Both the position numbers and the translations under genes were made by a program. The notes under the pieces were generated by a model. It saw nothing but the letters and a program-made list of their open reading frames with translations, did not search any database and was not told the origin of the DNA. A DNA stretch of 64,000 bases from Candidatus Bathyarchaeota archaeon. GTDB taxonomy: Archaea; Thermoproteota; Bathyarchaeia; Bathyarchaeales; Bathycorpusculaceae. The stretch is taken from positions 1,920,001 through 1,984,000 of the forward strand of contig OY970280.1 in the NCBI GenBank assembly GCA_963715865.1, read 5' to 3'. Positions 28,862 to 32,185 of the stretch are shown one piece after another; position 1 is the first letter of the stretch, and the number at the start of each line of letters is the position of its first letter.

Positions 28862-29465
28862 CCAAACCTGCAGTCTCAATGGCAAGGTTGTCTTTTTTGC
28901 CACGGGCAACGTTAACAAGTTTAACGAAGCACGAAGCATTCTTAGCCCTTACGGCATTGCGGTCGGAATGCTACGCGTAAAAGGCGACGAGATACAAAGC
29001 GACAGCCTCAAAGAAATAGCCCAACAAAGCGCCATAAACGCGTATAAGCGAAGCCGACTGCCCATTTTTGTGGAAGATGCAGGTTTATTTATCGATGCCC
29101 TAAGCGGTTTTCCTGGTCCTTATGCGGCTTACGCGTATAAAACGATTCATAACAGCGGCATTCTGAAGCTAATGGAAAACGTGAAAGATAGGCGAGCGAA
29201 ATTCCAGTCAGTCATAGCTTACAGCGACGAAACCCTCTGCGAACCAGAATGCTTCGACGGCGAATCCAATGGCGAAATAACCTTAACTGAACGCAGGCAG
29301 AAGGGAAAATCAGCTTTTGGCTTTGACCCGATTTTTCAGCCACTTGGGAGCAGTAAGTCGTTTGCGGAAATGACTATTGAGGAGAAGAATGGTTTTTCTC
29401 ATAGGGCGATGGCTATACGGAAATTCGCTGAATGGTACAAACAAAGCTTATTCGCAAAAAAGTGA
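28830..29465 (+). CDS. rdgB: Non-canonical purine NTP pyrophosphatase (RdgB/HAM1)
   Basis: FATGNVNKFNE, VEDAGL, GFPGPY, FGFDPIF, SHRAMA. Confidence 0.96.
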   Translation: MAAMSRKENNNQTCSLNGKVVFFATGNVNKFNEARSILSPYGIAVGMLRVKGDEIQSDSLKEIAQQSAINAYKRSRLPIFVEDAGLFIDALSGFPGPYAAYAYKTIHNSGILKLMENVKDRRAKFQSVIAYSDETLCEPECFDGESNGEITLTERRQKGKSAFGFDPIFQPLGSSKSFAEMTIEEKNGFSHRAMAIRKFAEWYKQSLFAKK

Positions 29466-29495
29466 TTTATAGACCATAATCCTAATACTAACCTT

Positions 29496-29639
29496 ATGAA
29501 AGAGCTGACCTTCTACATTACTGATGCTGAAAAAATAAACAAAAAATACGGTGAAGATTATGTTTGCCGTGAAATTAATTCAATCTCCAACTCAATGCAG
29601 AAATGTCTCTCAGAAGTGGAGCAAATTTTAGTATTATAA
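29496..29639 (+). CDS. Small ORF of unknown function (47 aa) at the island edge
   Basis: Manual: MKELTFYITDAEKINKKYGEDYVCREINSISNSMQKCLSEVEQILVL*; no recognised motif. Confidence 0.25.
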   Translation: MKELTFYITDAEKINKKYGEDYVCREINSISNSMQKCLSEVEQILVL

Positions 29640-29704
29640 TAACTTCCCGTTTTAAGTTGTATTAATCAATTGTTTAAACTTTCAAAAATTGCGCCCGATA
29701 TTAG

Positions 29705-29741
29705 TTTCGCTATCAGCGAAATTATTTAAAGCGGAGCGAAA
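29705..29741 (+). repeat. Left 37-bp inverted repeat (palindrome + TATA-like + half-site) at the 3' end of the AbiEi-like gene
   Basis: TTTCGCTATCAGCGAAATTATTTAAAGCGGAGCGAAA; 29/37 ungapped matches to the reverse complement of 30435..30471. Confidence 0.85.
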
Positions 29742-29743
29742 GT

Positions 29744-30421
29744 TTACCGCGGACGTTTTTGGCTCTTTCTGGAATTCCAATCTTTCTCAAGGCTTTCAAG
29801 CAGAACGCCAGCAGCTTCTTCTCCTCGGGCAGGATAGTTAAAGAGGTCCACGTATAGCTGTACCTTACTCACAACGCTAACCTCGCCTATTTTGGTCAAG
29901 CCGTAAAACACTCCTTCATCATATGGCAAAACCATAGATACATTTCCACCTTTTTCGGTTGGTCTCAAGTCCAACTGTTGAGCTATACTCACAGCTTTGT
30001 CCCTTTCTTTGATGTAGAAGTGGATAGTCGTTGGTCTCACGTAGGGCGCAATAAGATTAGCACCCGCTAAGACAGTGAGAGCATATCCTGCGCTGCTTAA
30101 CTCTTTCATCTTCGAAATAAAAACTTCAATATCTCTCTCGAAAGTATGATAATTCAAGAATGTGTTCATAGAAGTATAGTTGTTAAATGCAGCCCACCGT
30201 TGCAAAAGTCTCACGGGATCCGACACATTTAGCTCATATCGGTCATCTCTATCAACATGCCCTTGATCGATTAGCGACATCACAACGGCATGAGTAAAAC
30301 CCAAAGAAACCTTTGACTCTTTTGACAAGCCCTCGATGGTCCAGCCTTTGAAAGGATCAATAAGGAGAACCCGTAGTACGCGGGAGGCTTTAGGCGAAAA
30401 AATGTTCCGTACCTTTCTCAT
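29744..30421 (-). CDS. Type IV TA AbiEi-family antitoxin (wHTH + DUF2186-like C-domain)
   Basis: KASRVLRVLL wHTH; DP..LL..W; YALT..AGA; GNV...PYDEGVFY; QLYVDL...RGEEAA. Confidence 0.88.
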   Translation of the reverse strand: MRKVRNIFSPKASRVLRVLLIDPFKGWTIEGLSKESKVSLGFTHAVVMSLIDQGHVDRDDRYELNVSDPVRLLQRWAAFNNYTSMNTFLNYHTFERDIEVFISKMKELSSAGYALTVLAGANLIAPYVRPTTIHFYIKERDKAVSIAQQLDLRPTEKGGNVSMVLPYDEGVFYGLTKIGEVSVVSKVQLYVDLFNYPARGEEAAGVLLESLEKDWNSRKSQKRPR

Positions 30422-30434
30422 ATGGGAAAGATTG

Positions 30435-30471
30435 TTTCGCTCTCATTTATAAAGTTTCGCTATTAGCGAAA
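30435..30471 (-). promoter_or_regulatory. Right 37-bp inverted repeat = AbiEi promoter/operator
   Basis: Minus strand TTTCGCTAATAGCGAAACTTTATAAATGAGAGCGAAA: perfect 8-1-8 palindrome abutting TTTATAAA, ending 14 nt before the AbiEi ATG. Confidence 0.85.
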
Positions 30472-30544
30472 ACGAAGCTTAAACTATAAAAAGGGTTCAG
30501 AAAGTAAATTGTCCCAACCCTCAAATAGTTAAAGGTGACTATAC

Positions 30545-31342
30545 TTGTACGATAGGAACCAGACTGAAGTTTCTAAGGGCGCGCTCGTTGAGCTGGCTCT
30601 AGCATTGGGACTTTACAAGGATGACCTAGTTTTAGCTGGTGGATGGACTCCCTATTTCTTAAGCCAAGGTTACATAGAGCATTGTGGCTCTGTTGATATA
30701 GACTTAGTGTTGCGTCCTTCCATTATGGCTCGGTACGAGTCAATTCGGGATATCGTACTGAGTCTCGGTTATGAACCCACGGAAAACCCTTTCCGTTTAC
30801 AACGAGAACTTGTTGCTCTTAACGGAGCACCTTTCCCATTTCATCTTGATTTTCTTACAGAGCCAGAGGCAAAGAGTCAAGTAAAAAACTTGATAGAAGT
30901 TCAAGAAGGGTTACAAGCAGTCTTTATTCCTGGTTGTAGCATCGTATTCACTTATAACTACTTGGAAACTGTCAGGGGTACTTTGCCTAAGGGTGGAGAG
31001 GGCGTTGTCAACATTAAAACCTCCGATATAGTTGGAACACTAACGATGAAAGGTCTTGCACTGGGCCGTTCACGAAAGTTGGAGAAAGACAGTTATGACA
31101 TATACACAGTGGCTGGTTTCCATGGAGGAGATCCTTACAAAGCTGCCTCCATCTTCAAGCAATTGGTAAAAAAGCTAGGCAATGCCGTTATACTTGAAGT
31201 CACAGATATAGCCCTTAAAAAGATCAGAGATGGTTTCGCTTCGTCAAACAGTTATGCGGCTCGAGCAGTTTCACGCTTCGTTGAAGAAGACGTGTCAACA
31301 GACGCATCAGAAAGAGTCTCAGCATTTATTTCCAAAATATAG
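30545..31342 (+). CDS. AbiEii-like nucleotidyltransferase (type IV TA toxin candidate)
   Basis: LVLAGGW...HCGSVDIDL, HLDFL, K..A...R...KDSYDIY pol-beta-fold motifs; SD AGGTGA before TTG. Confidence 0.82.
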   Translation: MYDRNQTEVSKGALVELALALGLYKDDLVLAGGWTPYFLSQGYIEHCGSVDIDLVLRPSIMARYESIRDIVLSLGYEPTENPFRLQRELVALNGAPFPFHLDFLTEPEAKSQVKNLIEVQEGLQAVFIPGCSIVFTYNYLETVRGTLPKGGEGVVNIKTSDIVGTLTMKGLALGRSRKLEKDSYDIYTVAGFHGGDPYKAASIFKQLVKKLGNAVILEVTDIALKKIRDGFASSNSYAARAVSRFVEEDVSTDASERVSAFISKI

Positions 31343-31412
31343 AATGACAACGCAAAACATGCATATGTGGGTGTTTATCAAAAAATTTTTTTCCCCTCAC
31401 TTGCTCACCAAC

Positions 31413-31604
31413 TCAAGGGCACTCGATAATTTTAGGCAAAAAGCCTAACAAGCTTTCAGGGTTCTTCCCAATTCTGTCACAATACAACCTTAACCGTCGT
31501 AAGAAAACACGTTTTGTTGCATCGGAAACCAACTTATTGTACCAAGTCTTATCAGACTCAAAGCTCAAAATCCACCTGGTCAATTCTTCCGTCTGAGGGC
31601 TCAT
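31413..31604 (-). pseudogene. Truncated N-terminus of a tyrosine integrase
   Basis: W...L.S..TKRVFLRRLRLYC...GKNPESLL resembles the SAM-like core-binding N-domain of archaeal integrases; stops at 63 aa with no catalytic domain. Confidence 0.55.
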
Positions 31605-31744
31605 ATTTCATTACCTCTAGAAGAATAATACAATTTTAATTCGGGAAGAAAGAGGAAGCCAAAAATCGAAATAGTTCTGCCTGTGGTTGGAGCTACTTTT
31701 AAATATTCGTGAGGTATGGTTTAGGTGCAGTTTAAGGTGTAAAG

Positions 31745-32185
31745 ATGCCAAAGCAGGAAAAAGGAAAATCACATTCAATACGACCAGTCAGCAGGCGTCC
31801 TCCAAGCTGGTGTAAGTACCAGCCTGAAGAAGTAGAATCATTCATAATAAAATTAGCCAAGGAAGGTCACTCACTCAGCAGCATAGGCACCATCCTTAGG
31901 GATCAATACGCGATTCCACTGGTGAAGCCTATAGTTGGCAAAAGCATAAGCGACGTTCTCCAAGGCGCAGGATTAGCCCCATCCTTGCCAGAAGACCTAT
32001 CAAACTTGATGAAGAAGGCTCAGAGCCTCGCAGTGCACATGGATAAAAACAAGAAGGACCTGCATAACAAGCGCAGCATGCAGATGATTGAAGCAAGAAT
32101 CCACAAGCTCTCGCGATACTATAAGCGTGAAGGTCTTTTGCCAAAGAACTGGAAGTACGAAGCTAAAATCGCCTCCGTAACCTAA
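31745..32185 (+). CDS. rps15: 30S ribosomal protein S15
   Basis: GKSHSIRP, IGTILRDQY, LPEDL, ESRIHKL-like motif, RYYK. Confidence 0.97.
   Translation: MPKQEKGKSHSIRPVSRRPPSWCKYQPEEVESFIIKLAKEGHSLSSIGTILRDQYAIPLVKPIVGKSISDVLQGAGLAPSLPEDLSNLMKKAQSLAVHMDKNKKDLHNKRSMQMIEARIHKLSRYYKREGLLPKNWKYEAKIASVT

Follow-up and report, generated by a model that had tools for sequence, protein, structure and literature searches.

The 64-kb window studied here (64,000 nt, positions 1,920,001 to 1,984,000 of contig OY970280.1 from a Candidatus Bathyarchaeota archaeon) contains an AbiE-like toxin-antitoxin (TA) cassette, in which the antitoxin gene abiEi is bracketed by two inward-facing copies of a promoter/operator-like unit. 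All coordinates below are positions in this window, and the genome carrying the window locus is designated G000. The cassette is 1.64 kb long (29699-31343, the limits of homology with its relatives) and consists of the left unit (U_L), abiEi, the right unit (U_R), a putative toxin promoter, and the toxin gene. abiEi is located at 29744-30421 on the minus strand and the nucleotidyltransferase gene at 30545-31342 on the plus strand. This divergent arrangement had been pointed out in an initial annotation made from the sequence alone.

The AbiEi-like antitoxin/regulator is 225 aa in length and is composed of an N-terminal winged helix-turn-helix (wHTH) and a C-terminal AbiEi_2 domain. Residues 68-209 match PF09952 (AbiEi_2) with an E-value of 4.4e-12. 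PF09952 is matched by all 45 aligned antitoxin relatives, HTH_IclR by 27/45, and MarR_2 by 14/45. The mean predicted local distance difference test (pLDDT) score of the structure model is 91.9, and residues 5-84 of the model align with wHTH regulators at a Z-score of ~9 and a root-mean-square deviation of 2.2-2.5 Å over 72-73 residues. Among the matches listed by Foldseek and VIA-align, there were only wHTH regulators and no solved AbiEi; the C-terminal domain was barely tested by these comparisons. Neither single sequences nor 45-row profiles of the cassette proteins showed a significant match to solved structures, AbiEi and AbiEii included, and the best was MarR for the antitoxin N-terminus (E 0.023). 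For the cassette proteins there was no match in NCBIfam and nothing meaningful in PHROGs.

The toxin gene encodes a 265-aa abiEii/MenT-like DUF1814 nucleotidyltransferase, as indicated by PF08843, the predicted fold, and invariant residues. The match to PF08843 (AbiEii) is slightly above the cut-off (E 1e-4, 22.8 bits, cut-off 22.5), and 32/45 toxin relatives match this family, the best at 3.8e-11. G32, G33, S49, D51, I52, and D53 are invariant across 45 toxin sequences. They include GG ... DxD, which we take to be the nucleotidyltransferase catalytic motif. The structure model (pLDDT 91.2) has TglT/MenT3 and MenT1 as its top Foldseek matches (E 2e-4 to 1e-3, probability 1.00).

The toxin gene appears to have signals of its own. 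A TATA-like sequence (CTTAAACTATAAAAAGGG, 30478-30495, plus strand), 7 nt from the U_R palindrome, is a putative separate toxin promoter. The box CTTAAAC-N2-3-TAAAA is kept in 7/8 aligned loci of the divergent clade described below, the remaining one, from genome G030, reading CTAAAC. The distance from this box to the right palindrome is 5-10 nt across the clade. A Shine-Dalgarno (SD)-like GGTGA (30534-30538, plus strand) lies 6 nt ahead of the TTG start of the toxin gene. GGTGA or GGTGG is kept in 8/8 loci of the clade, and the toxin start is TTG in 7/8 and ATG in 1/8.

The two units constitute an inverted repeat. Positions 29705-29741 on the plus strand pair without gaps with 30435-30471 on the minus strand at 29/37 positions (78%), and the longest identical run in these imperfect repeats is 8 nt. 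Both units contain the palindrome TTTCGCT-N3-AGCGAAA, followed by a TATA-like box and a third half-site. In U_L, which points into the 3' end of abiEi, the palindrome is at 29705-29721, the TFB recognition element (BRE)/TATA-like sequence TTATTTAAA at 29722-29730, and the third half-site GAGCGAAA at 29734-29741. In U_R, upstream of abiEi, they are at 30455-30471 (palindrome), 30446-30453 (TATA, TTTATAAA), and 30435-30442 (GAGCGAAA), all on the minus strand. U_L is separated by 2 nt from the stop codon of abiEi (29744-29746), and U_R lies 13 nt from the abiEi ATG (30419-30421). The initial annotation had described this repeat, its parts, and the 2-nt distance correctly, but gave 14 nt for the distance to the ATG.

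The right copy is, judging from its anatomy, the true abiEi promoter. The BRE-like GCGAAA is immediately ahead of the TATA box, and the ATG is about where a leaderless transcript would begin. The abiEi mRNA is probably leaderless, because only 13 nt separate U_R from the ATG. In U_L, GCGAAA and TATTTAAA are likewise present, oriented toward abiEi. The reading of these half-site and TATA words as BRE and TATA follows the established anatomy of archaeal promoters. The same palindrome-TATA-half-site architecture begins 47-51 nt ahead of the abiEi start codon in most relatives, in agreement with the promoter/operator character initially proposed for the repeats. The half-site words differ by protein clade (TTTCGCT/AGCGAAA, GTTCGCT/AGCGAAC, GCTCAA-N5-TTGAGC, and TGAACA). 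Because these words co-vary with the protein clade and the regulator has an N-terminal wHTH fold, we call the unit a putative AbiEi operator. There is precedent in AbiEi and Rv2827c, whose promoters contain one or two inverted-repeat sets used for autoregulation (PMC3985639, PMC7319586). It is likely that both repeats are copies of one archaeal promoter/operator unit, recognized by the AbiEi-like regulator encoded between them.

Taken alone, the inverted repeat is only modestly improbable; the best inverted 37-mer reached 29/37 or better in 3/200 dinucleotide shuffles of 29000-32000. The palindrome at one mismatch or fewer is found at only these two sites, both exact, in the whole 2.35-Mb genome. 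A reversed control pattern has 3 places at one mismatch or fewer in the same genome, so that the number of sites is not informative, and what counts is the exactness and the pairing across 750 nt. In the window, there are two exact palindromes, where 0.53 are expected at two mismatches or fewer. The units have no stable RNA structure (z-scores -0.95 to -1.19) other than the trivial hairpin of the palindrome, and the Rfam scan of 29300-31800 yielded 0 matches at E up to 1. The decisive support for the repeat is the comparison with relatives, not these chance statistics.

Relatives were collected by three routes. The antitoxin protein was searched against 61, later 332, genomes of the genus and family, and also against metagenome contigs, where 80 loci were kept out of 460 relatives. 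For the third route, the DNA pattern of the unit was searched in a set with a single genome for each species. This gave 64 loci, among which 19 have AbiE genes; the other 45, mostly bacterial, resemble chance matches. The orientation census comprises 98 distinct loci with AbiEi identity of at least 44%, shorter matches and those below 44% being omitted. Contigs from two metagenome DNA runs (X1 and X2), about 85-92% alike, were also compared.

The divergent clade includes G000, G030 (= L092), L081, and L104-L111, which are 12 full-length records with 9 distinct sequences. All records whose AbiEi identity is at least 69% belong to it, and all show the divergent layout with about 120 nt between the two genes and a unit at the tail end of abiEi. 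Among the metagenome loci, 8/80 are divergent (69-78% identity), 69 are co-oriented with the toxin gene directly downstream, and three have no assessable toxin gene. In the census, there are nine divergent loci, 87 co-oriented loci, and two loci without a toxin gene. Where AbiEi identity is 44-55% and a toxin gene is adjacent, the two genes are co-oriented in all 87 distinct loci, which bears out the statement of the initial annotation that AbiE pairs normally share one orientation, as is also the case in the systems treated by Dy et al. (2014, PMC3985639). The antitoxin gene of the window is thus inverted relative to the canonical order.

In a 105-row tree, the divergent rows form a single clade among co-oriented clades (SH-aLRT 100), requiring one change, and for this reason the inversion is considered to be old and fixed. 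The flipped orientation was found in 0/12 full-length records and 0/2 truncated remnants. The X1 and X2 contigs carry U_L, abiEi, U_R, and the toxin gene in the order of the window and show no inversion joint, rare variants being dropped in contigs and invisible there. These comparisons indicate that the divergent genes result from an old inversion, now fixed throughout the clade, and do not represent one state of a reversible switch.

A single inversion of the proximal unit together with abiEi, in an ancestor with two tandem units, would give the present order in one step. The alternative route would start from a layout with one unit before the antitoxin gene and another past the toxin gene, where the half-site word is the most similar, and would need an inversion and a circular permutation. 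No route is chosen here, because the sister group of the divergent clade is left unresolved by the tree.

Two truncated relatives were observed. L015 (= L052, G036), at 1435-2073, retains the last ~52 codons of abiEi (76% identity), followed by a left unit with perfect half-sites. By eye, the abiEi piece is fused in frame behind a RelE/ParE-like N-terminus, with a small putative antitoxin gene upstream. L132, at 2217-2790, lacks the wHTH part of AbiEi. Residues 49-218 remain (64% identity), and the inverted unit behind them has partly decayed. L132 may be an early branch, because its identity falls between those of the divergent and canonical clades. The L081 contig, titled as uncultured Eubacteriales, carries a divergent cassette 76-78% identical to that of the window and nearly identical to L104. 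This bacterial label may be a binning error, because every other titled member of the AbiE family that was fetched is archaeal.

Conservation of the two units was measured as mean pairwise identity over the nine distinct divergent loci, all of which have U_L. The three half-sites show 0.963 in the left unit and 0.958 in the right unit, and the TATA box 0.972 and 0.944, respectively. The spacers within the unit show 0.521 in the left and 0.688 in the right. For reference, four-fold degenerate sites of abiEi show 0.494 and third codon positions 0.558. The distance from the stop codon to the left unit varies from 2 to 23 nt. The TATA variants are copy-specific throughout the clade, with TATTTAAA in the left and TTTATAAA in the right, over 69-100% protein divergence. 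Because each copy keeps its own variant, the units appear to evolve as separate orthologous elements without homogenization. A dead relic is very improbable for the left copy, because its half-sites and TATA box equal those of the real promoter in conservation, and its spacers are at the neutral level. Evidently, it is a second unit maintained by selection.

The possibility that the strand opposite abiEi encodes a protein downstream of the left unit was considered and rejected. Stops are present in all three frames in 9/9 sequences (eight loci of the clade and the L015 remnant), and there is no conserved start. Oligo-T terminators are not consistently conserved; a T5-6 run is seen at about +210/+255 in 6/9 loci, and early T runs vary.

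Outside the divergent clade, a second unit is also the rule in most cases, and its placement is clade-specific. Within each cassette, the second unit has the same word as the primary unit. In the loci with the GCTCAA word, 27/29 have two tandem units upstream. Among the GTTCGC-word loci, 40 could be assessed. A direct unit follows the toxin stop within a few tens of nucleotides in 28 of them and an inverted unit in one; six have head-to-head units upstream, and five have no second unit. In the divergent loci, 9/9 have an inverted unit past the abiEi stop.

Several arrangements were seen beside these. In the GTTCGC clade (L017, L112, L114, L120, L124, and 23 further loci), the whole operon lies between direct copies of the unit, and the palindrome of the 3' copy is usually imperfect, with AACGAAC in the right half. 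In L059, L080, L155, L160, L173, and L174, head-to-head units upstream of abiEi start about 37 nt apart, and the outward-facing unit is directed at non-conserved neighbors. Reversed GCTCAA-type units are present just upstream of abiEi of the GTTCGC-word cassettes in L021, L135, L145, L147, L151, and L153, suggesting two AbiE cassettes of different specificity placed head to head. Orphan GTTCGC-type units with no AbiE gene within 3 kb are present in archaeal contigs L047, L071, L073, L076, and L077; the one in L071 is upstream of a RelE-like gene. At 1180-3035 of L082, there is a distant pair of regulator and nucleotidyltransferase genes, recognized from motifs by eye and undetected by tblastn with the cassette proteins. 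A GTTCGC-type unit directly past the stop codon of the second gene points back into that gene, so that a tail-end unit facing inward may have arisen independently in L082.

The limits of the cassette are sharp. The G000 and G030 sequences are 87.5% identical over 1646 nt, from 6 nt ahead of the U_L palindrome to 1 nt past the toxin stop, and their flanks are unrelated. Matching of the X1 and X2 contigs stops at 29700/29705 on the left and at 31343 on the right. Compared with close relatives, a 2.1-kb segment (29554-31693) that includes the cassette is inserted between Ham1 and rpS15. The empty site is seen in G102 and G100, where 29441/29468 of the window is joined to 31694 with 58 and 15 nt between. 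Other relatives have differing inserts of about 190 nt, 730 nt, or more than 1.4 kb in this space. The Ham1-rpS15 intergenic space (also seen in loci L193, L203, L194, and L198) is therefore evidently an insertion hot spot. The neighbors are the archaeal housekeeping genes Kae1, Bud32, Ham1, and rpS15, and in G000 the plus-strand operon of Kae1, Bud32, and Ham1 reads toward the 3' end of abiEi.

At 31413-31604 on the minus strand, 70 nt past the toxin gene, there is a 63-aa open reading frame (ORF), which the initial annotation rightly noted as an integrase stump. Alone, it has no Pfam or PHROG match. It resembles the first ~55 aa of longer frames (~400 aa in about half of the matches) found in 42/119 other genomes of the genus, which belong to a tyrosine-recombinase-like integrase family. 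One of the two full-length relatives tested matches PF00589 (E 3.1e-6, residues 131-322), and the other has no Pfam match. Judging from these matches, the ORF is an N-terminal integrase stump without the catalytic part. It has no paralogue in this genome, and the flanking sequences of the other 10 divergent records contain nothing homologous to it. Of 16 ORFs that flank the cassette in five other loci, none matched a recombinase family. Several relatives have integrases of the stump family no farther than about 1-11 kb from Ham1, which suggests that an integrative element uses the hot spot as its attachment site and either brought the AbiE cassette or received it later. A transfer RNA (tRNA) gene as the attachment site was not found by ARAGORN in the window. 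Longer terminal inverted repeats of the insertion (29585-29667 against 31623-31692) were rejected, with a score of 25 against 19.4 +/- 2.6 (maximum 29) in shuffles. A 47-aa ORF at 29496-29639 spans the left edge of the insertion, where homology with relatives stops at 29553; it matches no family and is probably not a gene.

The left copy very probably functions as a second operator/promoter unit, in an arrangement that is fixed throughout the clade. That it is a second AbiEi-controlled promoter/operator firing into the 3' end of abiEi has, in our judgment, an even chance. The strong conservation of its TATA box and half-sites favors an AbiEi-repressed antisense promoter, which the initial annotation had offered as its alternative to a switch; the left unit has the promoter consensus in the right orientation and apparently under selection. 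Abundant AbiEi would occupy all six half-sites, which would shut the abiEi promoter and the left promoter that converges on it. The toxin promoter, whose upstream edge the U_R palindrome would also overlap, would probably be shut as well. When AbiEi falls, for example if infection shuts off host expression, both promoters flanking abiEi would open. Convergent transcription from the left unit would oppose abiEi expression through collision or antisense pairing. The recovery of the antitoxin would be limited, and the separately transcribed nucleotidyltransferase would be released more sharply. We put forward tentatively, as one model that is less likely than not, that the face-to-face promoters under antitoxin control act as a self-reinforcing commitment switch for an archaeal abortive-infection toxin, in which the loss of AbiEi opens the antisense promoter and abiEi is suppressed further, and that the family requires two units per cassette, at the cassette ends in most clades. 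On this model, AbiEi-bound end units may also define the cassette as a looped or mobile unit.

Several observations weigh against an antisense promoter. The binding of AbiEi to the units is deduced from where they are, from their symmetry, and from half-site words that co-vary with the protein clade. Beyond the unit itself, the sequences bear no apparent mark of an antisense RNA. There is no conserved antisense ORF in the nine sequences examined and no excess of synonymous conservation at the 3' end of abiEi, third-position identity being 0.48-0.65 in all windows. In G000, a T5 run lies ~15 nt past the left unit, near the predicted start. In the search of sequencing runs, the locus was found in no RNA run. 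The 105-row tree, on which the single inversion rests, comes from a quick search with a midpoint root. The 3' units of canonical relatives keep the TATA-like box and are followed by unrelated DNA without a conserved ORF. Because these units keep a TATA-like spacer with no gene behind it, the conservation of the TATA box may reflect the architecture of an operator and not promoter activity. This last point is the main support for a reading that we regard as possible, though not probable, in which the left unit only binds AbiEi, perhaps with TBP/TFB, without productive transcription. Looping of the 0.73-kb abiEi, or buffering of free AbiEi, would then tighten or tune autorepression, and the TATA-like spacer would be retained as a need of the binding architecture. 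Such a position-tolerant operator is also consistent with the varied places and orientations of second units across clades and with the ORF and synonymous-site checks, which do not indicate a constrained antisense RNA. However, the left TATA box conserved to the base (0.972), with the BRE-like GCGAAA ahead, is the signature of a working archaeal promoter, and among the papers listed by full-text literature searching on toxin-antitoxin and DNA looping there was no AbiE case. In favor of the auxiliary operator, multiple repeat sets with cooperativity are described for Rv2827c (PMC7319586).

It is improbable that the unit serves as the end of a mobile cassette, either by setting the boundary for recombination or insertion or by blocking, as a protein-bound site, transcription that would enter abiEi from the DNA around the cassette. 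Such a role would account for the left limit of homology, which coincides with the left palindrome or lies no more than 6 nt from it in five independent contexts (G030, the G036 remnant, X1 contigs with two different flanks, and X2 contigs), and for the right limit at the toxin stop. The 28/40 assessable canonical relatives bracketed by direct units, with unrelated DNA outside, and the housekeeping operon transcribed toward the 3' end of abiEi also fit this role. On the other hand, no recombinase travels with the cassette, neither a target duplication nor a second end-repeat is seen at the toxin end, and the exact palindrome is nowhere else in the genome. Sharp limits of homology are also expected if just the selected parts stay recognizable. 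The initial annotation had favored a phase-variable switch, in which recombination between the repeats toggles the divergent and the operon-like layouts. The repeats enclose exactly one gene, the flipped state would recreate the canonical order of relatives, and the integrase fragment is close to the toxin gene. Nevertheless, abiEi would have one promoter ahead of it and another behind it in both orientations of the segment, and for this reason we consider the switch very unlikely. The single orientation in all nine distinct loci and both remnants, the X1 and X2 contigs with only the junctions of the window, and the imperfect repeats with their copy-specific TATA variants speak against it as well, rare forms being invisible in contigs. 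The integrase piece has no catalytic region and is beside the cassette in G000 only, and none of the 16 flanking ORFs belongs to a recombinase family. It is equally hard to believe that the left copy is the relic of a rearrangement with no present function, the outcome that the initial annotation had named in case its predictions failed. Orphan units without AbiE genes do exist, and the L015 and L132 remnants retain a unit next to a broken abiEi. Nonetheless, conservation of the half-sites and TATA box of the left copy equals that of the functional promoter, against a neutral level in its spacers. All nine distinct loci have the unit, and very recent copying is excluded by the four-fold-site identity of 0.49.

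AbiE/MenAT systems are widespread defense/TA modules. Their regulation is understood only in bacteria, in operons where one promoter contains the repeats. Here, an archaeal branch has a rebuilt module, in which the toxin and the antitoxin are transcribed apart, from predicted promoters, and a second unit is apparently under strong selection. If the left copy fires, it would constitute an antisense circuit controlled by the antitoxin. Such a circuit could account for the commitment of a type IV system to releasing its toxin. Should the copy do no more than bind AbiEi, the archaeal TA cassette would have long-range auxiliary operators. Either way, the second units across about 100 loci are concrete sites for binding and transcription work. 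Among the papers listed by full-text literature searching, none was seen to report an AbiE pair with divergent genes, an AbiE operator from an archaeon, or a second operator/promoter at the 3' end of the antitoxin gene.

Invertible promoter switches such as fimS, hin, and the Bacteroides invertons have a short segment between inverted repeats, the orientation of which can govern an adjacent gene. The window locus shares the flanking inverted repeats with these systems but not a dedicated recombinase or the presence of both orientations. Its repeats are imperfect and are themselves putative promoters/operators, no cognate recombinase was found, and one orientation is seen in all records. At lac O2/O3 and in coliphage 186 pR-pL, a distant second repressor site or face-to-face promoters tune expression. 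In the archaeal TA cassette described here, two convergent promoters on either side of the repressor's own gene would both be under control of that repressor, and literature searching turned up no AbiE case of this kind. The toxin shares the predicted fold and the invariant GG...DxD with MenT/TglT (PDB 6j7n, 6y5u, 8an4, and 8xhr), at a sequence identity of just 14-17%. MenT is reported to target tRNA acceptor stems.

Like the AbiE type IV TA/abortive-infection system of Streptococcus agalactiae and Lactococcus (Dy et al., 2014, PMC3985639), the cassette combines a wHTH plus C-terminal-domain antitoxin with a DUF1814 nucleotidyltransferase. In those bacterial systems, the regulator gene precedes the nucleotidyltransferase gene in a bicistron with a 4-nt overlap, the promoters have -35/-10 elements, and repeats overlap the antitoxin promoter, suggesting negative autoregulation. 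The present genes are divergent with archaeal BRE/TATA-like promoters, and the bicistronic order with the antitoxin first is found neither here nor in any of the nine distinct divergent loci. Three half-sites per unit, a putative promoter and SD of the toxin's own, and a second complete inward-facing unit past the antitoxin stop also distinguish the archaeal cassette. Rv2827c-Rv2826c, an AbiE homologue, is similar in having more than one repeat set, to which AbiEi would bind in the present case. According to Beck et al. (2020, PMC7319586), both sets recognized by Rv2827c are in one promoter and show negative cooperativity, whereas the two units of the window are 0.73 kb apart, flank the gene in opposite orientation, and have their own TATA-like boxes.

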